Positions 7,843-64,000 of a DNA stretch of 64,000 bases are shown here, piece by piece. Made by a program: the position numbers and the translations under genes. The stretch's first letter is position 1. Each line of letters begins with the position of its first letter. Where the stretch lies: the NCBI GenBank assembly GCA_951406725.2, contig OX597825.1, positions 47,306,001 through 47,370,000 on the forward strand. The letters run 5' to 3'. The notes under the pieces are model-generated. The model was not told the DNA's origin. It saw nothing but the letters and a program-made list of their open reading frames with translations, and made no database searches. The DNA is from Octopus vulgaris. Lineage: Eukaryota.

Positions 7843-7848
<6 letters not shown>
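7550..7848 (+). mobile_element. tRNA-derived SINE (second family)
   Basis: tRNA-like head 'cagtggttagggcagcggactc...ggtttcgattccc'. Homologous to 51568-51865 (-). Confidence 0.8.
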
Positions 7849-7879
<31 letters not shown>

Positions 7880-7892
7880 GTGTGGGTGGGGT

Positions 7893-8070
7893 ATAGGGAG
7901 AATTCACAAAATAACCCAAAAGACAAAGACAGGTGTTGTAGAAAAACAAACAGATGTATAAGTATAACGCTAGGGAATTGAAAAAGTCTTTAACGTTTCG
8001 AGCCTATGCTCTTCCACAGAAAGGAACACCGATAGAAAGAAGGAGGGAAAAAAATGTGTGTTGTGGCTAG
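7893..8070 (-). mobile_element. PLE pseudo-LTR fragment with variant HHR (7988-8023)
   Basis: Reverse-complement homolog of 10213-10400, 10645-10795 and 56718-56892. Confidence 0.75.
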
Positions 8071-8251
8071 CGATCTATCTATATTACTATATTACACCAC
8101 GCATCCATTTCCAAGTCAGTTTATCCTTATTTTTTTTATGCGTTAAAACTCTATACTGTTTTCTCTCTCATTCTCTCCCATCCTTTCTCTAATTCACTTT
8201 TTTCCTCACCTTTTCTATCTGACTTTCTTTCTCTCTGTCCCTCTTTCTGTT

Positions 8252-8835: not shown

Positions 8836-10271
8836 TTTATTTCATTTAATTTGCCACAAGGGCAGTACATAGAGAGAAGCTTGTGGGCTGGACATGGACA
8901 AGATGAGATGGAATGAAACAAAATGATACGGATGAAAGGGATGTCGGCGCCCACCGACCGACAAACCCTCGAATACAAAGTTTCTTACAACAATACAAGG
9001 TTTTTTACAAAAATTATTTTTGTTAGGTCCCTCAAGCAATGTGACTTGCCGCCTGCAGACAACTCTGCATCGACAAGCCGGGGCCTGCAAAGAGGAAAGC
9101 AAATTCGCTGTGACCTTTGACAAAATTCTTTCAGTTACTACCTCCGTAGCCACCTGCGGAGGCCATATCGGACTACTTGGGCAGACCGAGTACACACATT
9201 CTCGGTCACCCAAGCCCTCCAAAAATTTACTCACCGTCCCTCCCTAGCGGTAAAGGAGGAGAAACACCTCCTCTTCACAAGAAGGGACCTCACACTGTTC
9301 CGTCAGGGGCACACGTCCCACTGACGGAGCCCTATCCGCAGGTGGCACACATCCCACCTGCGGCTCCGTCGGCGGCCCAGGAACATCCGCCGACCGTCCT
9401 TTGCTTTTCGTTTTCCTCTTTCTTTTTGAGGCTGCGGGAGCAGGGGGCTGCGTGGACAGACGCGGAGGGTCACAACCTTCCTCCGCCGCCTGAACATTCT
9501 TTGGTGAGCAACCATTATTGCTCACCTCTCTTTTTCTTTTCGTGGAGGCACTTGCCCTTACCTCTCCAACACCACCCTCCTCACTGGCACCCATCATCGA
9601 CCCTATCTTACTCTCTTTCTCTCTTTCTCTCCCCTCCTTCCCTCTTCCCTCTTACTCTCTTCCTCTCTTCTCTCTTTCTCCCTTCTCTCTTCTCTCTTAC
9701 TCTCTTTCTCTCTCCTCTCTTATTCTCTTTCTCTCTTCTCTCCTACTCTTTCCCCACTCTCTCTCTTTCTCTCTTCCTCTCTTCTCTCTTCTCTCTTACT
9801 CTCTTTCTCTCTTCTCTCCTCCTCTCTCTCCTCACATACCCACCTTCCCCTCCCCCAGGAACCCACCCACCCCTACACATCCCTACTCCACCTTTCCTAT
9901 CCTTCCCATCCCCTATCCTATATCCCACCTCCCACACATACCCCACCTCTATCCCAACCCTCTGCCTACCCACAAACCCCAACAACATCACACCACACCA
10001 CACTACATCATACAACATTACACATCACATCACAACACACCACCACACACCCATCCCCACATCTTCACACACATACACACACACGGCCCTCTTTCACACG
10101 TACATACATACTCTCTTATACAAACACGCACCTTTGTGTTGGGGGTCATCTTTACCTTGTTATCTCCCCTACTTTCCTTCCTGTATTTGACTCTTCTGTC
10201 CGGCACTAGTCGCCATGATAGATCGTTAGCCACTACACACATTTTTTTCTCTCCTTGTTTTTTCTGTGCCC

Positions 10272-10307
10272 CTTTCAGTAGAGGAGCGTAGGCCCGAAAC
10301 GTAAAAG
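10272..10307 (+). ncRNA. Minimal variant hammerhead motif
   Basis: CTTT-CAGTAGAG-GAGC gtag GCCC-GAAAC-GTA-AAAG (degenerate copy). Confidence 0.5.
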
Positions 10308-10708
10308 ACTTTTTCTATTCCTGAGCGTTATACTAATACATCTGTTTGTTTTGTACACCACCTGTCTTCGTCTTTTGTTTTTTTCGTAAACTCTCCCTAT
10401 ATATATATATCACACCACACGCCACCATACCACACCACACCACATCACACCACCCCGCGCACACTAGCACTGACCACTTCCCACACCTACATATGTACAT
10501 ACGCACACGTCAATGTCACCAGCCCCTTCCACACGCATGCACACGCACATACATGCTCTCACATACACACACACGCGCACCTTCGTTTTGGGATCACCAC
10601 TACTTTATTATTTCCCACCTGAGTGACTCCTCTGTCCGGCATTCGCCATGATAGATTCTTAGCCACTATGCCTTTTTCTATTTTCCTTCCCTGTTTATTT
10701 CTGTGTTC

Positions 10709-10744
10709 CTTTCTGTCGAAGAGCGTAAGCTCAAAACGTAAAAG
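10709..10744 (+). ncRNA. Minimal variant hammerhead motif
   Basis: CTTT-CTGTCGAA-GAGC gtaa GCTC-AAAAC-GTA-AAAG. Confidence 0.5.
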
Positions 10745-13672
10745 ACTTTCTCACTTCCCGATCTTGGTATTTTTTCTTTTGTAAATTCTCGCTATATATT
10801 ACACGCTCACGTGTTCACACTGGTTTTATCCTGTTTCTACCTCCACTTCGAACTTTGAACTATTGTACCTGGATTCTCTACCTGGACTTTCTTCTCCTCT
10901 TCTACACCTGGACTCCTACACTTCGGCTGCACCTCTCCTACCCATGGATTATGCTGGACTCTTCTTTGATGAGAAATCGCTCCAATACACCAAGGCATTT
11001 GAACCTTTTGGATTTTTCTAAACTTTTTTGTACTTTCTGCTTTTTCCTATTGTCGTTTCTCTCAATCCGCACTTGTTACATTTCTCCTCTTTCCCTCCCT
11101 TTCTTTTCCTCTTTTGCCTACTCTTCTCCCTTTCTTTCTCTTTCTCTTTGTTTCTTCCGTCTTCCTCCTTTCTCTCCTTGTTTTTATTTTTCTTCTTCTC
11201 CCACCTCTTGTATTTTTTCTCTTCACGCCATTTGCATTTTTTCTCCTCACGCCTTTTGCATTTTCTCCCCACTCGTTTTGAATTTTTTCTCCTCACATCT
11301 TTATTACCTTTCTCTCTCTTTTCTTCTCGTCTTTCAATGATGCCCGATTACAAACCTTTCCTCCTCCACTTTCACCACCGCCTAAAAAACACCTTTCCAC
11401 ACTTCCTTTCCGCTGATTTCAACCTATTAACCTTTCCTTACTAATTTTCATAAAACCACGCCTCTGCAGTCACCCCACTCTCCACTATGCTTCAGCAATC
11501 CAACCCATACTCCGTACTACATCCTACCGTCTTATGCGCGCCACCATTCGTTCTAATCTCTCCAAAATACACAACAGCGACCGCCTTCCGATGGTAATAC
11601 TACTTTACGTTACATAATTCATTTAAATAATCTCTTTCGTCAATTTCTCACTCACACCAAACAACGTATACTCCAATCTCTCCTCCATTCCATCACACCC
11701 GATGTCACTACCCCAACTCCTCCCCTACGCCTCTCTCACTAATACGCTCCCCCACCCTTACCAAACCCCGTCCCTCCAAATACCCCACCTACATACCCTC
11801 CCACCAACCACAACCCACCACCCCTCCTACTTCTGTCCCATCCACCCCTTCTCCATTTCAGTCTGTTGTTGCCATTCCTCCAGATCTTCCCTTCTCTGAG
11901 GCGGAACGCTCCCTCATCAGTAGGGGTCTGCGCTTCATCCCCCTCACTCTATCCAGCAACGAATTTCAGACTCGTTCCGATATCCACAGCTTTGTGCGTG
12001 CTTTTCCGCGGCACTCCACCTGCATCTAATGAGGAGGACTGCTTCACCGACTTGGGCCGCCGACCATCCAAGTGGACGCCAGTTCCAAGTAGTCGATCTT
12101 TTTGCGGGCGCCTGCCAGCGTGTTGTGGACCGGTTTTTCAAGCGTCCCCGACATCAGAACATCTCCCCAGCCAAACTTTCAGCCCTTCGATGTCTCCGAT
12201 GTCGCACGGATATCGTCATAAAACCGGCCGATAAGGGTGGTGCCGTGGCGGTGTTGCGCGCGGACCTCTACAAGGCGGAAGCTCTCCGCCAACTTCAAGA
12301 CACCTCCTTCTACTGCCTACTGCCCTCCAACACCACGCCCAGCTACCAACAGATTGTGTCCTCCACTCTCCATGACCTCATATCCTCTTCCCAACTCCTC
12401 CACCTCCGCTAACCACATTGTCCGCACCCCTCACACTTCCACAATTTACTTCTTCCCCAAAATCCACAAACCTAACAACCCTGGCCTCCCCATTGTCTCC
12501 GACGGCAACTGCCCCACCGAACAATTCTCCAGATATCTTGACCGTGTCCTTGCTCCCCTAGTGGCCACCCTCCCCTCTGACAACCATGACGCCAACCATG
12601 CTCTTCGTTTGTTCAACCCTATATCCTTCCATCCTGGCCCCTCTAAACTTCTCTTCACTTTTGACATCAAGAGTCTATACACGGCGATCCATCACCATGA
12701 GGGGCTGCGTGCACTCCAACATTTACTTGATCTTCGACCCAACCCCCAACCTTACACATCCACACTCCTACGTCTGGCCGAACTTGTCCTCTCACGCAGT
12801 TGTTTTCGTCCCATTTCTTCTGTTTATAATCTCCTCAGTTTTAAAGAAAATATGTTCATCCATTATTTTTCTCTTTATCTGCAACATATGTTGCTCCTAC
12901 CATACTTTGTTTACCTTCTTATCATCTATTCGTGCGTGTGCATAATATTTTAAATGTAATTAAGCTTGAATCAAATTAGCAACAGCATTAAGTAGAATTA
13001 AAGTAAAACTTACAACTTTGTAGCTTTCCATTAAATATGAAAAAACGTTATTTTTTGATGCAGGTATTTTAATTAAAGCTATCAAGATTTAATTTTATAA
13101 AAATAGACAAAGAGAAAATTTAGGAATCTCGGAAGGTGAAACATAGTTACAAACCGGGAAGAGAATGCAAATTCATACTGATTCTAACACACTGTTGTCA
13201 GTAGCAATAGGCTACAAAACGGCGCGCATTCTGATTATTACCTGTTTAAGACATCTAAGTTACCAATTCTTAAGGGCACTCAAATACGTAGGCGAATTGA
13301 TAGTTTTTAAGTCAAATTCTATTTATCTACTTTTGAAAATTCTCGCGAACTGCTCAGTGGTAGTTGTTTAACGTTAGACTAGTCCTGATCAACAAAATCA
13401 GTAATTATGTAATTGAGCCATCGGCATCATAACTTTTTTTTTTTATATATTTCAGCGACAACAGACTGACAATTAACTACACGGACGTGCCCTAGTAAGA
13501 AAGTAGCTAAGTACAGTGATGATGGACAAGTTTGTTCAGCAATTCGGTAATGAATATTTCTATAGAAATTAATGGTGCATCTAAGTAATCTCCAAAGATG
13601 TAGCATTTAACAAATTAATATATCTAACACACGCACACGTGCGCACGATATATATATGAATATATTATATAT

Positions 13673-26790: not shown

Positions 26791-28255
26791 AGCCCACTTG
26801 AAATCAAAAAGGAAAAATTTTAGTAGTTGCCCTCATGATAGAAAATTAATTTTCGAAGCGTGGTCTTCTCCGTTTGAAAACAGCAAAGTTTTTCGGTTGT
26901 TTTTTTTACCCCAATCAAGTCAAGGCAGTATATGCGACTATGTGCTTCCGGTCAGTAAGTCAGATAAGCTGTGTGTATTGCCAAGTGCAATAGTAGACAC
27001 AAAACCAGTGATAACATTTTGGTCGGCTATATACCATAACCAGGAATACACTTCTCGATAATATGGAAGAATAACCACTCAAATTCTCTCTTGGTGTGTG
27101 TTCTTTTTTTACTCATGGACAATTGGCCGATACGCACGGAGAGACAGATAGAGAGACAGACAGATACACACACATTAGTTATCTGTGTTAAGACATGTGT
27201 AATTACAATTCTTGTGAATCCCTTTTACATCAACAGAATAACTATCCGTTCTACGAAAATAATACTGTTAAATGTTAAAGCAAATATATACTTCAATATA
27301 ATTAACATTATGAAAAAAAACAATCTTCAATCAAGATATTTTCTAGCGGGGAAAGGATTTTATAATGTGATACGACAGCTTATAATTGTGCTCTTTCAAG
27401 TAAATGCAACGAAATTACTTCAGACAAAGAGAATTTGACGTAAATATTAACTTCTAACACCTACTTACCCGATTTTTTAGTTCCACTAGTTTTCTGAAAG
27501 TAATATTATTATAAGTCTTTTCTAATTAAATAAAGTAGTTAACCGTAAGAGTTTCTCACCTAGTAAGTTTATATTTAGAAACAACAGCTGCACACCTTCG
27601 AAATTCAGATCAAAAGATAACTTACTGAAGTATTACTGAACTGTTAGTAATAAGTTTATTGCATGACATATGCATTTTAACTGGACACTCTAAAATTGTC
27701 ATTATAAGAATTCTAACAATAACTGACAATTAAACGATTAGATTTAGTCAGTTGTGACGATTGGCACCTCCCACATGCTGCATGTTCATCATTCCAGGTG
27801 TATGTTATACCAATGAAGTTAAAGGAAAGCTTGAAAAGCAATGAATAGGCGTTATTTTCAGGTTTCACAAGCAACTCTGAAGAGCCAGTTTTTGCTGATT
27901 GTGCATCAGTACTAATAATATACAAAAGCATGTTGTATTCCGGCTTGAAATTGACATCAATATGTCACAAATTTATAAAAGAAACTTTGCAATTTAAAAA
28001 TTAATTTGGAATTAATCAAAAACTTCTATATATGATGTTGTTTTGAACATGGAAATAAAAAAAAATTTGGAAATTATCTCATCGTTAATAATCATCTTGA
28101 CGTATTTAAGTAGCATGCCATGAATTGGGAATTAGTGCCAAACGGAGACAAAAGTAAGAGAATTTACCTCTTGTTTTACAGCGTTCGGCAGAGTATATAG
28201 TCACGTAGGGTTTTTTTATAAGCTTAGATGAATTGATAGTTTAGTGGGGAGAATA

Positions 28256-28480
28256 GAGCTGGCAGAAACGTTAGCAGGTCGGGCCAAATGCCTAGTGGTA
28301 TTTCATCTGCCGCTACGTTCTGAGTTCAAATTCCGCCGAGGTCGACTTTGCCTTTCATCCTTTCGGGGTCGATAAATTAATTACCAGTTGCGTACTGGGG
28401 TGAATGTAATCGACTTAATCCCTTTGTCTGTTCTTGTTTGTCCCCTCTGTGTTTAGCCCCTTGTGGGTAGTAAAGAAATA
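28256..28480 (+). mobile_element. Meta-domain tRNA-derived SINE
   Basis: Box B 'gagttcaaattcc' and Meta-like core 'gcctttcatcctttcggggtcgataaa'. Confidence 0.8.
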
Positions 28481-28582
28481 AGAAGTACTATCAGTATCAT
28501 CTTCCTGAAAAGTAATATGCGCGAAAAATCTGAATTGGTTCTCCAACTCGGTATTTGGGAATCTCCCCCTCTTCTGTATAGC

Positions 28583-28798
28583 TATTTCTTTACTACCCAC
28601 AAGGGGCTAAACACAGAGAGGACAAACAAGGACAGACAAACGGATTAAGTCGATCATATCAACCCCAGTGCGTAACTGGTACTTATTTACTCGACCCCGA
28701 AAGGATGAAAGGCAAAGTCGACCTCGGCGGAATTTGAACTCAGAACGTAACGGCAGACAAAATACGCCCGGCGTGCTAACGTTTCTGCCAGTTCGCCT
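28583..28798 (-). mobile_element. Meta-domain SINE, inverted partner of 28256-28480
   Basis: Reverse-complement homolog. Confidence 0.8.
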
Positions 28799-29141
28799 AT
28801 TCTGTATAGCGTACACCAGATTTTCTGACTAATTTCAACAATATAATAATTTCTGTAAATATAGTTTACAGGGTATTTAGTGCTGATAAACAATGCCAAC
28901 GTAAAAGTGAATAAAATGTGAATGCCAAGTGGAAGTGAACTCATATCTTCTTTGTTGACATCTCGGTGTAATTAAACAATTTTCAATCGCTTCTGCATTG
29001 GCTTTGTATATATAAACAGAAACAGTCAAATCTAAACATATCGGTCAATCCTAGTCTAATAAACCCTAGAACGGAAATACAGATCAATGATACTGTAATA
29101 GTTGGTACATTTTGGACTATTGAATTACCGGGCTAATATTG

Positions 29142-35879: not shown

Positions 35880-38416
35880 AATACTCCACGGTTGTAAGGT
35901 ATTTCTAACCTTTCCAGATGTTTCTTCAGGTTGGGTGGTATTGAAACCAATGCTCCGATGACAACAGAGACAACCTTTATGTTTAAGTCTCGCAGCTGCT
36001 ACATCTTGCTGACCTTAATTCTCAGGTCTCCATATTTATCAACATTTTCTCTTTCATTTATGATAATAGGTTGATCTCCTGGCATTGTCATGTCGATTAT
36101 TAGGCACTCTTGTTTGTCCCTCTTAAAGGTTACTATATCCTGCCTTCGGTACTCTAACACCTTGTCTGACTGGAAGTCAAACACCAAAAGATATTTGCCT
36201 TCTCGTTTTCGTCCATTATCTTTACTGTGTATGTTGGTGCAAAACACCTGTTACCTCGTATCCATACTTCCGGTATAGTAGTCAGTGAAGGTTTTAGACT
36301 ATTTTGTCGTGTTTGCATTTATACTCTTTCTGTGCAAGACTTTCACAAGTACTTGCAATGTAGGTCATGCTTTCGACCTTCTTCCCACACATTCTTCAGA
36401 GGTTCGCTGTTCTTATGTAGTCTATATCCCTTTTCACTGAGCTGCTATTCAATGCCTGATCCTGAGCAGCAATGATTAGATCTTCAGTCTTCTTTTTAAG
36501 GTCACACTTGATGCTTTCTGGTCTTTTAAGTTCACGGTGGAATTGAGCACGTAATTCCATGCGGAGTAGAGTTCCTTCTCTCTCGTTGGCTATTAGTGAT
36601 CGGGATTCATAGCATTTTTTAGTCCGTTTTGGTTAAATCCTTTTGTTCTAGCAGCATACTGTAGCAGGTCTAGTTCGTTGATTACCAAATACTCTGCCAT
36701 GTTTTTTCTTTCAGTATTGATGCACTCTCGTGCGATAATCAGGCCACGTCCACCGTTGACCTATTCATGTAGAACCCATGTACTTTCGCCTTAGGGTAGA
36801 GGGCACCATGCATTGTTATCGTCTTTGGAGTAGTGTGATCGGGTTGGTCAATCTCATCTCGTGTCCATTTTAAAATGGGTGCACTGTAGTGGACTACAGT
36901 AACAGCCCATATATTGATGGCAGTCACAAGGTTCCTTGAGTTGAGTTTTGACTTCAAGAGTAATCTGAGGCGCTCCAAAAATATGCAGTGGTGACCTTGT
37001 CTTTCATTTCTCTGTGTAAGATATTCTCCACCTTCAAGATCTCAAGCTATTTGTACCCATCGTCACCTGAGTCTCCTATTCGTTCTCCGTTCGGAAGTTC
37101 TAGGCCCCTACAATCTGCTCTTTTCCTCCGTTTCAAAGTGAGCACCGTACACTTCTAGATACCGAATTCTATCCTTATATTATTGCTGTATATCTGTACA
37201 GTCTCAGCCAGCCTCTCCATTTCAGGTTTTGCTTTTGCGAACAGTTTTAAATCCTCCGTGAAGAGAAGATAGTTGAGACGAGACACATTCTTTCTCAACT
37301 CATAGTGCGCGTTAACTTTGCGTAGAACTACAGAAAGTGAGATCAAGGCTATAACAAATGAGAAAGGTGAATAACAATCTCCCTGGAAGATACATCTTTT
37401 GATTGTTACCTCAGATAGGTGCTGGAGGCATGCTGTTCTTAATCAGTGCACACACATTCTCAATTATTCCGCACATGTCGAATGTTTCCAGAGTTCATGA
37501 ATGTGGCAAGATCTTGTAAGCATTTTTAAAGAATATCCAGGCCATGCACAAGTTTTTTGGTACCGTTTGCAGTTCTTCATTACGACCTTGTCTATCACAA
37601 GGTGGTCCTTGGCGCTCTGGATTCTTTTCTGCATCCCCCTTTGTTCTACTGGGAGTAGATTGTTTTCCGCAAGGAACGTATATATTTTCCCTACGTGGAT
37701 GCTTGTTAACACTTTCCGTAAGAGTTTAAGACAAACTTTGGGTTGGTAATTGCTAACCTCATTGTCCTCAACAATGTTGTCTTTCCCTCTACAATCCATT
37801 ATGGAACTGCACCACTCTGTAGGCAATTGTCTAATTGAAACACAATTCGTTTGTGTGTTGACCTAAGTCACTTGAGCGGTAGCCTTGGATTCTGTCTGGT
37901 CCTGTCGCTTTCCAGTTTGGCAGTTTTGATACAAGTGTAATTACATCTTCTGTTGTTATGCATACGTGGTCCTGTCGTGGAGCCACAGGGTGATGGGGTT
38001 AGGATCTCCCTGAATAAATCCACTCAGCACCGTGGTTGTGGGAAATCTCCTGCCCCCATATGTTATCCCGAAATTGACTGGTCCAAAAGGACAATGGAAA
38101 GAAATTGTGAGGGCATATCTTGAAACAAAATACCAAACAGGAAAGAAAAGTTTCAAAACTGTTACTGAAACCCTAAAACAACGTGTTGGAGCAAAATCAT
38201 TGACAGTACAAGGCTACACTGATTGTATATCGCAGTTCCAGCAAAACAGATTATTTACAAATAGTCAATGGCAGGATTTTAAGAGATTAAGTGGAGATAC
38301 AAAAGATAATACATCTAAAGCAGAGGAAACCTGCCAGTTTTGAAATAACATCTGGAACCAAGAGGTTTCCCACAACTACGGTGCTGAGTGGGTTCATTCA
38401 GTGAGATCCGAACTCT
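35880..38416 (-). mobile_element. R4/Dong-clade RLE LINE, decayed, with inverted 5' segment (38050-38416 on +)
   Basis: NWKATGPD, QGD..SP, LLFTEDLKLF, LKSKLNSRNLVTAIN and RLE RQDIV..CLIIDMTMPGD..KYGDL. Confidence 0.85.
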
Positions 38417-46140: not shown

Positions 46141-51110
<4,970 letters not shown>

Positions 51111-54559: not shown

Positions 54560-54650
54560 TGTATGTATATATGTACATATATATATATTATATATATATA
54601 TATATAATATATATATATATATAATGTATATATATATATATATATATATA

Positions 54651-56216
54651 CTTTATTTTAAGCAGCAGAAAATTCAACAAAATCTGTTACTCTGAGTTTC
54701 TCGTTGCCGTTCATCAGACAGTTTTTGCTAGAATGGAACATATATATTAATTCAATCTATACTCTTACAAACGCTACACCTTTAAAAAAAAATGGACTTG
54801 TTTGATTGGCCCTTTAGAAAAAACGGTCAATCTTCGAGCGATAAACAAAAAGGTCAAAAATATATGTATATATATATAAAAAACTTATAAAATTATAAAA
54901 TCCGAGGAAAAAACCGAGGAAAAAACCGAGGAAAAAACCTATTGCCGTTAATGAAGACAGTACAAATTAATGCATAGAAATTAAACCTGTTATAAATACT
55001 GCAATACATATTTATATTAAAATCCACATATATATATCAACATACACAAAAGGATAGAGTATATATTTTGTATTTTGATTTTTTGATTTTGATTTTGACT
55101 CTTGAGCGCTACGACGGACCTATAGCAAAGTCTTATTGTTTCTACATATATATTAGGAAAAACCTACAAACTTTGTTTTCATGTTATTGTATTGCATAAG
55201 ATTACCTTGATTATTTATATTACCTTGATTATTTATAAATGACCCAAAATAGGATGTTATATTTTATTTTATATGTCTTTCGTATATATTTTTATTAATG
55301 CACCCATTTTTTAAAAGCAATGTTTTTTTTAAAAAAAGCAATGTTGTCAAATTTAGAATGTTTATATAAGTTTGTATATAGCAAAGCATATATATTTGTA
55401 AGCATGCGTATCTGTGTATGTGTAAGTGAAAGTATGCTTGTGCTTAAGCACGCATACACACGACGGTATGTATATGTATCAATTCAAACTTGTGTATGTA
55501 TACTGGCCTCTATAGATGTCAATAATATTGCTACAAGTTTTCCCCACCCCTCCTTCGTTTCTTTTTTCTCTCTTTCCCTTTCTTTCGTTCCCCCTCCTTG
55601 CTCAGTATATGAGAATTGCTACATAGATGAATTTTAGCTTGCGTGCGAGACGGTTTGCGTGAATATATGTACACATGCTTTTATGTGTATAATTTAGATT
55701 CATATTCATACGTCTGTATATGTATGTATGGCGTTTACGCGCATCCTTTTGTGTATGTTGATATATATATGTGGATTTTAATATAAATATGTATTGCAGT
55801 ATTTATAACAGGTTTAATTTCTATGCATTAATTTGTACTGTCTTCATTAACGGCAATAGGTTTTTTCCTCGGTTTTTTCCTCGGTTTTTTCCTCGGATTT
55901 TATAATTTTATAAGTTTTTTATATATATATACATATATTTTTGACCTTTTTGTTTATCGCTCGAAGATTGACCGTTTTTTCTAAAGGGCCAATCAAACAA
56001 GTCCATTTCTTTTTAAAGGTGTAGCGTTTGTAAGAGTATAGATTGAATTAATATATATGTTCCATTCTAGCAAAAACTGTCTGATGAACGGCAACGAGAA
56101 ACTCAGAGTAACAGATTTTGTTGAATTTTCTGCTGCTTAAAATAAAGCATATTACTCTACCACTGGTATTTGAGTACTCTTTTTTCCACCTTGTTTCACA
56201 TTTATGTGTTTACTCC

Positions 56217-56219
<3 letters not shown>
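54651..56219 (+). mobile_element. Non-coding PLE-derived foldback: 405-bp inverted arms, HHRs, unique 3' tail
   Basis: 54651-55055 is the near-identical reverse complement of 55743-56147. Tail 56148-56219. (TA)n on both flanks. Confidence 0.9.
56071..56120 (+). ncRNA. Minimal type I hammerhead ribozyme (mirror copy 54678-54727 on -)
   Basis: CTGT-CTGATGA-ACG gcaa CGA-GAAA-CTC a GAG-TA-ACAG. Predicted cleavage after 56110. Confidence 0.8.
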
Positions 56220-56672: not shown

Positions 56673-56717
<45 letters not shown>

Positions 56718-56718
<1 letters not shown>

Positions 56719-56892
56719 CGCCATGATAGATCGGTAGCCACTACACGCATTTTTTTCTCTCCTTGTTCTTTTCTGTGTCCCTTTCTGTAGAAGAGCGTAG
56801 GCTAGAAACGTAAAATACTTTTTCAATTCCTGAGCGTTATACTAATACATCTGTTTGCTTTCTACACCACCTCTCTTCGTGAACTCTCCCTA
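56718..56892 (+). mobile_element. PLE pseudo-LTR fragment with variant HHR (56781-56816)
   Basis: Homologous to 10213-10400. Confidence 0.75.
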
Positions 56893-56905
56893 TATATATA
56901 TATTT

Positions 56906-56960
<55 letters not shown>

Positions 56961-56967
<7 letters not shown>

Positions 56968-57617
56968 GAAGGAGCTTCTACAGGACTAGAACTGTTTCAT
57001 TCAAGAGAAATCTTCAGGAAGCTAGTTAACAAGAATTGTATTGGCATTTATACATTTAGGCAGGTTTAAAGGGGTGTTGGTGGGGGACTTTTTGGGGGTA
57101 GGCATAGCGCAAAATATCATACTTGGGGGAGTGGTCAAGGAGTCAGTGTTAAATTAGATAGAAGAATAAATAAAAAATAAAAAAAATAAAAATATATATA
57201 TATATAAAAAAAGGGGGAATAGAGTTTTAGGTAAATAAGGAGATTCTCACTTATACCTATGCACATATGTATACATATATACACACGCATACAAACATAT
57301 ATACATATACATACACACATACATACACACACATATATATATACATATATATACACTTACACATACATATACATATCTACACATACACATATATGTATAC
57401 ATACACACACTCACATGCATACACGTATACACACATGTATATATACACACACACGACCACACATACATATACACACAGAAAAATATATATACACATACAC
57501 ACACATACTCACATACACGCATACACACACAAATCCACACACACACATGCACACACAGCACACTAGTCCCTATATACACATATATACACATACACACATA
57601 TATACACACACATACAT

Positions 57618-57663
<46 letters not shown>

Positions 57664-58090
57664 GTGTACCTATGCATACCTACACATACACACACATATA
57701 TATATACACACACATATATATACACATACAAATACAGACCCATTCCCTAATTTTAATTTTATTATCTTCGTTTATTACTTTTGTTATCTTTGGCCGCTTG
57801 GTCACAAACATCTTGGCTATGACAGCCAGTCCATTTATCTGTCTACTGGAAAACAAGCACTCATTCACTCACGCACACTCTTTAGCACGTACACTCACTC
57901 ATTCGTACACTCATACACATACACGCACGCACGCGTTATATTCATACATACATACATCTACATACATTCACGTATATACACATACGTACGCGTACCTACA
58001 GATTCATGTCTACACTCTTAGAAGGCTAGTCTATACATATACACCAATAAATATAAATACACACACATACACGTACACCTACATACAAAT

Positions 58091-58154
<64 letters not shown>

Positions 58155-58375
58155 TCACATATATATACACATATATACATACACATACATACATACACAT
58201 ATATACACATATACACACATATACACATATATACACACATACACATACATACATATACACACATACACATACATACGTATACATACATACATACATCCAT
58301 ACATCCATACATACATACATTTATACACATACACACACCCACATACATACATATATATACGCGCATATATATATC

Positions 58376-58407
<32 letters not shown>

Positions 58408-59270
58408 CATATATACATATATATTCATACACACACATACATATACATACATACATATACAAATATACGCACACACATACATACATACTCATATACTCAT
58501 ACACGCACATACACATGTACATGCGTACCCATACACACACACACACACGCGCGCGTCCATATATACACATAAGTACACCCATGCGTAAAAGTATACATAT
58601 ATCTATGCTTACACATACACACACACACACGCGCCTCCTTATATTCATACTTACATGCATACTCAAAAAATAAGTAAATAGTAAAATATATATACGCGAG
58701 TATGCATGTATGAATAACTGCGCGTATATATATTTTACTATTTACTTATTTTTTGAGTATGCATGTAAGTATGAATATAAGGAGGCGCGTGTGTGTGTGT
58801 GTATGTGTAAGCATAGATATATGTATACTTTTACGCATGGGTGTACTTATGTGTATATATGGACGCGCGCGCGTGTGTGTGTGTGTATGGGTACGCATGT
58901 ACATGTGTATGTGCGTGTATGAGTATATGAGTATGTATGTATGTGTGTGCGTATATTTGTATATGTATGTATGTATATGTATGTGTGTGTATGAATATAT
59001 ATGTATATATGTATATATGTATATGTATATATATATATATAGATATATATATGCGCGTATATATATGTATGTATGTGGGTGTGTGTATGTGTATAAATGT
59101 ATGTATGTATGGATGTATGGATGTATGTATGTATGTATGTATACGTATGTATGTGTATGTGTGTATATGTATGTATGTGTATGTGTGTATATATGTGTAT
59201 ATGTGTGTATATGTGTATATATGTGTATGTATGTATGTATGTGTATGTATATATGTGTATATATATGTGA

Positions 59271-59326
<56 letters not shown>

Positions 59327-59754
59327 ATTTGTATGGAGGTGTACGTGTATGTGTGTGTATTTATATTTATTGGTGTATATGTATAGACTAGCCTTCTAAG
59401 AGTGTAGACATGAATCTGTAGGTACGCGTACGTATGTGTATATACGTGAATGTATGTAGATGTATGTATGTATGAATATAACGCGTGCGTGCGTGTATGT
59501 GTATGAGTGTGCGAATGAGTGAGTGTACGTGCTAAAGAGTGTGCGTGAGTGAATGAGTGCTTGTTTTCCAGTAGACAGATAAATGGACTGGCTGTCATAG
59601 CCAAGATGTTTGTGACCAAGCGGCCAAAGATAACAAAAGTAATAAACGAAGATAATAAAATTAAAATTAGGGAATGGGTCTGTATTTGTATGTGTATATA
59701 TATGTGTGTGTATATATATGTGTGTATGTGTAGGTATGCATAGGTACACATATG

Positions 59755-59792
<38 letters not shown>

Positions 59793-60436
59793 TATATGTA
59801 TGAGTATGTATGTGTGTGTATATATGTGTGTATGTGTATATATGTGTATATAGGGACTAGTGTGCTGTGTGTGCATGTGTGTGTGTGGATTTGTGTGTGT
59901 ATGCGTGTATGTGAGTATGTGTGTGTATGTGTATATATATTTTTCTGTGTGTATATGTATGTGTAAGTGTATATATATGTATATATATATGTGTGTGTAT
60001 GTATGTGTGTATGTATATGTATATATGTTTGTATGCGTGTGTATATATGTATACATATGTGCATAGGTATAAGTGAGAATCTCCTTATTTACCTAAAACT
60101 CTATTCCCCCTTTTTTTATATATATATATATTTTTATTTTTTTAATTTTTTATTTATTCTTCTATCTAATTTAACACTGACTCCTTGACCACTCCCCCAA
60201 GTATGATATTTTGCGCTATGCCTACCCCCAAAAAGTCCCCCACCAACACCCCTTTAAACCTGCCTAAATGTATAAATGCCAATACAATTCTTGTTAACTA
60301 GCTTCCTGAAGATTTCTCTTGAATGAAACAGTTCTAGTCCTGTAGAAGCTCCTTCTATATAATAAATTAATTTTACTCTGCTATGTATTGAGTACCTTAT
60401 TTACTGTGGTTAACCCCGAATCAACCCGGGACCTAC
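56961..60436 (+). mobile_element. Non-coding PLE-derived 3.4-kb palindrome with terminal HHRs and 3' tail
   Basis: 56961-58698 is the reverse complement of 58721-60362, with a 22-nt loop. Tail 60363-60436. (TA)n flanks. Confidence 0.9.
60300..60350 (+). ncRNA. Type I hammerhead ribozyme (mirror copy 56973-57023 on -)
   Basis: AGCTTC-CTGAAGA-tTTC tctt GAAt-GAAA-CAG ttctagtc CTG-TA-GAAGCT. Predicted cleavage after 60344. Confidence 0.8.
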
Positions 60437-60504
60437 ATATATATATATATATATATATGTATATATCAATAATAATAATAATATGACAGAGGTATTAATA
60501 ATAA

Positions 60505-61907
<1,403 letters not shown>

Positions 61908-62670
61908 CTAGCAGAATTGCCCGGCGTTGCTCGGGGCTGAATTACTTGAAAGTACTGTTAATGATTGCACTGAATGATGATGATTATTCAGGCAAATATT
62001 GATATAAGTTTACGCTGGGAGATAAGGACTTAACGATCAAACGTGTGCCATTGCATTGTTTTGGGGGAACCAAATTTCTGATGAGCATTATAGGGGCACC
62101 AACTTTAAGTTTGAGAATGTGTGGTGGTAGTCCGGGGGGCTCAAAGGAATTGAGTACCTCTATTGGATAGTTGATGACGTCCTCTGGGTCAGGAGTTGTA
62201 TCGATAGACTGATATACATAGACTTCCCCAGGAATGAGATTTAGCATTTCATCATTAATATGGTGAACAGTTTTATTCCTCGGGGCCAGTATAGCCTTTT
62301 TGCCAATCCAATCCATATTCTGATAATTAGCTTGTAGATCTTGGAACACTGCATCAGAAGGCGTCTTAACAATGGTACAAATGGAATCGATGGCAATATT
62401 ACCATTTTCATCCCCTGGTATTTTGCCTTCGCCAAGTGCAATGAGGGTGTGAGGAAATGCTGCTGATGTGATATTACGTCGCATATGAGCACGCATATTG
62501 GTGTGAAGTTTGAGAGTTACTTCCCTTAATTTTAAAAAATGCATTAAAATGGGAAAAAATGATGGTAAATTATTTGTAAAATCGGTTTTGGTTAAACTGC
62601 ATCGCAAAATGTGGGAGTAGTTAGGAATCTAAATCGGAGTAGACAGACACACAACCTTTCTTTTATATAT
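61908..62670 (-). mobile_element. Internally deleted Helitron with PIF1 helicase fragment
   Basis: AILAPRN and GLPPHILKLKVGAPIMLIRNL..CNGTRL. Minus-strand 3' end is the hairpin CCCGagcaacgcCGGG followed by CTAG|T. Confidence 0.9.
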
Positions 62671-62689
62671 ATATGCCATATATATATAT

Positions 62690-64000
62690 GGCAGGGACTG
62701 TCTAACACAGCTCTTACACCACATTGAAGATGTACTCAAAGCCTTGGGAACAGGTTCGAACTCTGATGTCATATATCTTGACTTCAGTAAAGCGTTCGAC
62801 AGGGTAGACCATAATATCCTACTCTCAAAATTGGCAAATGTTGGAATCCGTGGAAAAGTTCTACACTGGATCAAGTATTTCCTGGCGAATAGAACACAAC
62901 ATGTTGTAGTTGATGGAGTCCACTCAAGCCCAGCCAAAGTCACCAGCGGTGTCCCCAGGGGACTGTCTTGGGTCCGCTACTCTTCATAATCTACATAAAC
63001 GACCTTTCCAGTGTCGTACATTACTGCAAAGTGAAAATATTTGCTGATGACACTAAGCTCCAGCAAATCGTCAATGAAGAAGCAGACCGAACTCAACTCC
63101 AGTCTGATCTATATGCTGTGAGTCAATGGGCAGACAGAAACAAAATGCAACTGAACGAGGGAAAATTTGAGCTGATGCATTTTGGAAGAAACTCCTCACT
63201 AAAACAGCCATACTCTCTTCCTTCAGGGGAACCGCTCACAGCCTCTAACAATATCAGAGACCTGGGTGTAATTGTTGATGACGATCTCAGTTGGAGTGCA
63301 CACATCAACAAGAAGGTCGATATAGCTCGTAGGATGAGTTCTTGGATCTTAAGAACTTTCCGGTCCAGAGAACAAGGTGTCATCATACCACTTTTTTCCT
63401 CCTTTGTACGGCCACACCTTGAATACTGCTGCTCACTGTGGTCTCCTCACACAAGACAAAACATCTCCAGAATTGAGTCACCCCAGAGGGCACTCACTAA
63501 ACGCATTGAAGGCATGGCTGCTCTCGATTATTGGGATCGCCTTAAAGCCTTGAAACTTTACTCCCTCCAGCGTCGCCGTGAGCGGTACATCATTTGTACG
63601 ATGTGGAAAATATACCGCCAACTTTGCCCAAACGACCTAAACATTAGCTTCAAGGTTCATCCAAGACTTGGACCACGGGCTATACGTCCCCTGCCCAATT
63701 CAAGATCACAACATACATGTACACTGCAACATAATTTCTTTTCCTCAACAGGCCCTGCCCTATTTAACATTGTCCCGAGAGAGATCAAAGAGGAAAAGGA
63801 TCCCATCAACTTTAAACAGAGTCTGGATAGATTCCTTCAAAGAATACCAGATAAGCCACCCATAATTGGATACAACTCACCCAACAAGAACTCACTACTT
63901 GAACAAAACTGGATACAACTCACCCAACAAGAACTCACTACTTGAACAAAACTAGACTTAAACAAAACTTGACTTAAACAGGATTCGAATAATCCTATCA
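62690..64000 (+). mobile_element. 5'-truncated CR1-group LINE RT with one frameshift
   Basis: DVIYLDFSKAFDRVDH, SGVP/GPLLFIIYINDL, FADDTK and VRPHLEYC. Short tandem duplications at the 3' end. Confidence 0.9.

Follow-up and report, generated by a model that had tools for sequence, protein, structure and literature searches.

A 3.4-kb palindrome with hammerhead motifs in the Octopus vulgaris genome, probably a single insertion of a Penelope-like element 3' end

A 3.4-kb palindrome, E1, in Octopus vulgaris contig OX597825.1 is best explained, with a probability of about 75%, as a single insertion of the noncoding 3' end of a Penelope-like element (PLE) into (TA)n, with the mirror arm made during the insertion; the insertion is presumably young, and PLE enzymes are its presumed agent. 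E1 fits insertion by an endonuclease-bearing PLE in having an inverted, 5'-truncated copy (the sense copy being 22 nt longer), a tail at one end only, a hammerhead motif, and a microsatellite target. An inverted 5'-truncated copy adjoining the 5' end, a one-sided tail of 30 to 40 bp, and microsatellite targeting have been described in PLEs (Craig et al. 2021, PMC8557442), and the same PLE insertion structure is known from Adineta (Arkhipova et al. 2013, PMC3846280). No open reading frame (ORF) was found for the E1 family, so anatomy and neighboring elements are what tie it to PLE enzymes. A previous, sequence-only reading had proposed a PLE-mobilized noncoding foldback that might form a family of its own. 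Its PLE link was retained, given the published anatomy and two neighbors in the window that share parts of it, and the proposed family moving as a palindrome was not supported by comparison with contigs from public sequencing runs. Positions refer to the window, the whole 64,000-nucleotide stretch that was analyzed.

Architecture of the palindrome and of a second palindrome nearby

In a global alignment, the arms of E1 at 56961 to 58698 (1,738 nt) and 58721 to 60362 (1,642 nt) are reverse complements, with 1,619 matches, 5 substitutions, and 7 indels (99.7% identity over aligned bases). The largest indel is a 100-nt segment of the left arm (57359 to 57458) that is flanked by 15-nt direct repeats and absent from the right arm; the six others are 2 to 10 nt in length, lie within microsatellites, and occur in both directions. 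The inverted arms, the 22-nt loop, the microsatellite slippage, and the one deletion of ~100 bp between direct repeats described previously were all borne out by this alignment. The left arm (56961 to 58698, minus strand) is a tail-less, inverted, 5'-truncated copy of the element 3' end, and its outer end lies ~18 nt beyond the hammerhead cut site. The 5'-truncated sense copy (58698 to 60436, plus strand) consists of a T-rich, microsatellite-laden noncoding region, followed by the hammerhead and a 74-nt tail (60363 to 60436, plus strand) found at the right end only. E1 is bordered by a (TA)n-rich left flank (56891 to 56960), the likely insertion target, and a (TA)n right flank (60437 to 60466), within which a target-site duplication is unreadable. 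The extra tail on the right arm alone and the (TA)n on both sides agree with the earlier description, as does the lack of coding sequence: the arms contained no credible ORF, and open frames of at least 90 amino acids were mostly microsatellite translations. The noncoding stretch upstream of the hammerhead is at least 1.6 kb in length, and the parent of E1 may be nonautonomous. As the parent, an autonomous PLE whose 3' region is very long nevertheless has slightly better odds than a nonautonomous passenger.

A second palindrome, E2 (54646 to 56218, plus strand), lies ~0.8 kb from E1 and represents a different family with the same anatomy, including (TA)n flanks. Its 410-nt arms share 408 matches (99.5% alike) and enclose a 687-nt spacer, its hammerhead (56081 to 56110, plus strand, and 54717 to 54688, minus strand) is not of the E1 family, and its tail of ~70 nt is present at the right end only. 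A 5-bp hairpin (TACTC...GAGTA) in the E1 tail (60374 to 60394, plus strand) is common to the E2 tail (56153 to 56176) and, within the window, occurs in these two tails only. Both hairpins end 42 nt before (TA)n and begin 1 to 11 nt past the tail-less end. In a post hoc comparison (n = 2), local alignment of the tails gave a score of 37, and 8 of 5,000 dinucleotide shuffles and 1 of 12,720 further segments of the window scored at least as high; the regions upstream of the tails gave a gapped alignment score of 35. The hairpin stems are identical in E1 and E2 and thus offer no covariation. The shared hairpin is a candidate enzyme-binding element.

Foldback elements carry long inverted repeats rich in simple repeats, and E1 resembles them in this respect. 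An origin at the DNA level, either through fold-back duplication of a preexisting copy in later DNA repair or as a Foldback/MITE-type DNA transposon, is nevertheless very unlikely, since neither flank occurs in duplicate, E1 and E2 both have their left end at the tail boundary, and the ends are asymmetric and hammerhead bearing.

Six more inverted repeats, 78 to 98% alike, were found in the window (163 to 373/1821 to 2059, with 1515 to 1566/1774 to 1825 nested within; 15911 to 15970/16276 to 16335; 53697 to 53885/54064 to 54248; 46132 to 46938/47923 to 48770; 28250 to 28803; and 37998 to 38413), and in four of them the right arm leads directly into a microsatellite. They are possibly older PLE-type inverted insertions; a search of them for a canonical hammerhead was negative. 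A short repeat between E1 and E2 (56715 to 56903) ends in (TA)n and has relatives near 7846 to 8079, 10211 to 10410, and 10640 to 10761 (77 to 85%).

Loop and fold-back junction in public sequencing runs

The 22-nt loop (58699 to 58720, plus strand) comprises the first bases of the sense copy, with a 1-nt microhomology (G58698) at the junction. A probe spanning 58685 to 58870, which contains 14 nt of the left arm, the loop, and the start of the right arm, was compared with contigs of four public runs (X1, X2, X3, and X6) from three studies and under three organism labels. The four runs gave 46, 675, 15, and 55 matching pieces; 32 of the 791 pieces and 23 of the 26 loose-end rows were listed, about 80% of run X1 and 76% of run X2 was covered, and the probe part from 58780 to 58870 received no cover, having been skipped as a repeat. 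Among the pieces listed, loop-matching contigs in all four runs (at least 2 in X1, 12 in X2, 2 in X3, and 1 in X6) continue 5' of 58698-58699 into T-rich, noninverted sequence, which resembles a subunit of ~58 nt just downstream and is unlike the inverted arm. Among the rows listed, further loose ends at 58700 are likewise unlike the arm. Two listed X3 pieces starting at 58698 had word depths of 3,235 and 1,677, and another had a depth of ~10; because word depth is no copy number, these values are taken only to mean "repeated." Since the loop contigs run on into noninverted sequence, the loop belongs natively to a repeated element, and the family extends further 5'.

The fold-back junction had a depth of 0 at 58685 to 58691 in all four runs, with no contig over the probe start and no joint listed; this negative result comes from contigs, which drop rare variants, and an insertion of young age may exist in a single animal only. 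The usual form of the E1 family is thus not the fold-back. Given that the loop is ordinary internal element sequence and that other copies do not fold back, E1 is most likely one truncated PLE copy. The earlier proposal of a nonautonomous "ribozyme foldback" family, moving as a whole palindrome, would agree with the absence of a credible ORF, the 99.7% similarity of the arms, and the hammerheads at both outer ends. It failed the loop test over the four runs compared and is highly improbable, since a junction common to many loci should leave a deep contig and 0 of 4 runs contained one, while the loop ran into noninverted element sequence in all of them. The one-sided tail and the single sense hammerhead per transcript, predicted to be locked in duplex, also speak against such a family.

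The palindrome is present in the assembled sequence, and its confirmation comes from the assembly only. As the fold-back junction is absent from the contigs of all four runs, a fold-back sequencing chimera or a misassembly of two copies of a high-copy repeat retains a low probability, and the (TA)n flanks are weak anchors. The differences between the arms (the 100-nt deletion between direct repeats, the five substitutions, and the two-way indels) argue against such an artifact, as do the left arm, which ends at the tail boundary without mirroring the right flank, the same one-sided tail in E2, and a junction overlap of only 1 nt.

In a run search with 60150 to 60960, part of this segment was present in 20 of the 24 runs listed and half or more of it in 4; no RNA run containing it was listed. 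The four runs compared above come from these 24, one of which may be the source of the window; runs with only small shares of the segment did not enter the comparison. Exact scans with a 31-mer of the hammerhead matched 0 loci in the metagenome, viral, and prokaryote collections, and a 27-mer of the loop matched 0 loci in the metagenome collection. A loose end of 255 nt behind 58733 was also observed, of which the 30 letters listed are identical in all four runs (three organism labels). In it, a portion of the loop region runs into a different sequence, perhaps at a shared old locus or in a related family.

Hammerhead motifs

Our own descriptor scan placed type I hammerhead cores of E1 at 60306 to 60344 on the plus strand and at 57017 to 56979 on the minus strand. 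The right motif (60300 to 60350, plus strand) has a complete core, a palindromic CUAG in loop 3, and a predicted cut after 60344; the left motif (56973 to 57023, minus strand), which belongs to the inverted copy, is identical to it. Elements C3-A9, G12-A14, A15.1-U16.1, the NUH triplet (GUA), and stems I to III are all present, with 6 bp in stem I, 3 bp above a U·U in stem II, and 4 bp with an 8-nt loop in stem III. The G10.1-C11.1 pair, which is highly conserved in hammerheads (PMC4209133), is missing and replaced by the U·U at the base of stem II. A strict descriptor, fixed only after the motif had been seen, gave two matches in the 64-kb window and none in each of 100 block shuffles. A complete type I hammerhead at each outer end, as previously reported, was confirmed by descriptor, with the U·U in stem II. 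The Rfam check proposed at the same time gave no hammerhead: there were 0 matches at the gathering score in the whole window, and none of 14 matches at E ≤ 10 over 56900 to 57150 was a hammerhead.

The computed active fold of 60300 to 60350 has an energy of -7.3 kcal/mol, compared with a minimum free energy (MFE) of -8.5 kcal/mol (gap, 1.2), and with flanking sequence an alternative fold is better than the predicted active one. None of five folds was clearly better than shuffles (z, -0.62 to -1.29). A dimer through loop 3 is favored in silico (-27.0 versus 2 x -8.5 kcal/mol). Each strand of E1 carries one sense hammerhead only, at the 3' end of the rod, and by computation the sense motif gains far more from pairing with the antisense motif (-92.7 kcal/mol) than from folding on itself (-7.3 kcal/mol). 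The ribozyme of an E1 transcript is therefore predicted to be trapped in duplex, and the palindrome would silence it rather than be trimmed at both ends; the description of E1 as "capped by ribozymes" was overstated. Since either strand has a single sense motif, the idea that one transcript could be cut at both ends was discarded. In vitro, hammerhead cleavage is dispensable for a PLE protein (PMC11167929).

Five hammerhead matches were found by descriptor in the window, two in E1, two in E2, and one in E3, a decayed element immediately downstream of E1. The base of stem II is mismatched in all three families, as U·U (60313-60324), A·A (56088-56097), and C·U (61648-61671), and the triplet is GUA in all. 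In a relaxed scan of the surroundings of nine further inverted-repeat regions, three loose matches appeared, none judged to be a hammerhead. A second relaxed scan returned the E3 motif alone and missed two known motifs, and so it is not a sensitive test.

Mode of insertion and relation to Penelope-like elements

If E1 is a PLE insertion, a PLE endonuclease/reverse transcriptase would have cut both target strands, and each target end would have primed one cDNA on element RNA, one at the tail end and the other ~74 nt upstream. Both cDNAs would have stopped ~1.7 kb in, 22 nt apart, and been joined through the 1-nt microhomology (the shared G), in which case the loop would be the mere difference between two stopping points. 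Two such priming events are somewhat favored as the origin of the arms. A PLE protein is reported to cut and extend both target strands, starting at two RNA sites that bracket the tail (Frangieh et al., PMC11167929); in the parts of that study considered here, inverted repeats are not explained by two priming events. Given a PLE insertion, the mirror arm might instead have arisen by snap-back self-priming of a single cDNA, with the endonuclease resolving the product at the tail boundary, a possible but less likely route. Self-priming has been proposed, and was favored for PLE inverted junctions (PMC3846280), and E1 has a very short loop with a weak quasi-palindromic character. A hairpin designed for the junction is unstable, however (+3.1 kcal/mol; MFE, -0.5), and the spacer of E2 is 687 nt.

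Coding remnants of a PLE-like element were found in E3 (60483 to 61711, plus strand), which starts directly behind the right flank of E1 and comprises a decayed GIY-YIG-like endonuclease remnant, a microsatellite-rich 3' region of ~685 nt, and a hammerhead, with (TA)n after it. The remnant at 60483 is part of E3, not of E1, and is decayed by stops and frameshifts, with the last stop near 60955; the hammerhead (61641 to 61684) follows it by ~685 nt and precedes (TA)n by 27 nt. Three E3 pieces align in order to protein P0002, with E values of 1.6e-08 library-wide and 2e-08 and 2e-09 pairwise. P0002 matches Pfam GIY-YIG weakly (E, 0.035), and a longer cluster mate has a GIY-YIG-like domain at its C terminus. 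None of the three pieces had a Pfam match, and none had a match in two word-index searches or in Atlas; an exhaustive search with one E3 piece gave eight unnamed homologues, P0002 among them. Its motifs, and no database label, suggest a Neptune-type remnant. The layout of E3 indicates that, in this genome, a PLE-like ORF can precede a hammerhead and, ahead of it, a long 3' region rich in microsatellites. E1, E2, and E3 all have T-rich sense strands (42 to 43% T). Reverse transcriptase fragments (RVT_1 and zf-RVT) and a Pif1 2B-domain fragment also lie at 48713 to 50709, 62914 to 63945, and 61984 to 62628; the former are presumably LINE-like and the latter presumably of Helitron origin.

E1 resembles endonuclease-bearing PLEs (Penelope/Poseidon, Neptune, and Naiad; PMC8557442 and PMC3846280) in that its inverted copy is arranged head to head, its tail is confined to one end, its target is a microsatellite, and its hammerhead lies near the 3' end. 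It differs in lacking coding sequence, in its arms of 1.6 to 1.7 kb (versus ~200 bp for the pLTRs of Adineta), and in its 74-nt tail, about twice the published 30 to 40 bp. With PLE type I hammerheads (PMC4209133), the motif shares the type I core and a palindromic loop 3 that permits dimers; opposite-strand pairs also occur in Schistosoma, 100 to 700 bp apart (Cervera and de la Pena 2014, PMC4209133). In E1, the motifs are ~3.3 kb apart, G10.1-C11.1 is absent, and stem III, at 4 bp with an 8-nt loop, is longer. The U·U at the base of stem II is shared with axolotl HHR_Amex2 (Cervera and de la Pena 2020, PMC7229834), which has weak activity: the monomer reaches 22% cleavage in 1 h, and the dimer does better. 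Animal non-LTR retrozymes (PMC7229834; bioRxiv 10.64898/2026.07.22.740005) are likewise noncoding, with a type I hammerhead and a proposed dependence on PLEs. They are defined as tandem units (10.64898/2026.07.22.740005), repeated head to tail (330 and 350 bp in axolotl), whereas the pair in E1 is inverted, exceeds 1.6 kb, and contains no hammerhead unit in tandem. Assignment of E1 to the retrozymes was rejected: one sense and one antisense motif of its family occur in the window, not in tandem. No hammerhead-capped foldback family and no match to the E1 family were found in the literature covered, which was largely open access and was judged mostly from titles and the beginnings of abstracts. 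The architecture of E1 has already been published, and its family appears to be undescribed.

In a more specific and rather speculative scenario, the parent of E1 would belong to a protein-free, microsatellite-laden retroposon family of more than 1.7 kb that depends on Neptune-type PLE enzymes. The hairpin common to the two tails, which are otherwise dissimilar, would be the reverse transcriptase landing site, with one start just upstream of the hairpin and the other 42 nt downstream, and the palindromes would record two-strand priming in vivo.

Read in this way, E1 is a known PLE insertion product in an unusually long and clean form and not a new system. How PLE tandem and inverted structures form has been named as an open question (PMC8557442); a genome-wide count of microhomology, spacer length, and tail boundaries in young palindromes such as E1 and E2 could distinguish snap-back from two-strand priming. 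For the in vitro assay of PMC11167929, the hairpin common to both tails offers a candidate cis-element. Were transcription to run through the E1 locus, it would yield a 1.6-kb duplex, a possible source of small RNAs.
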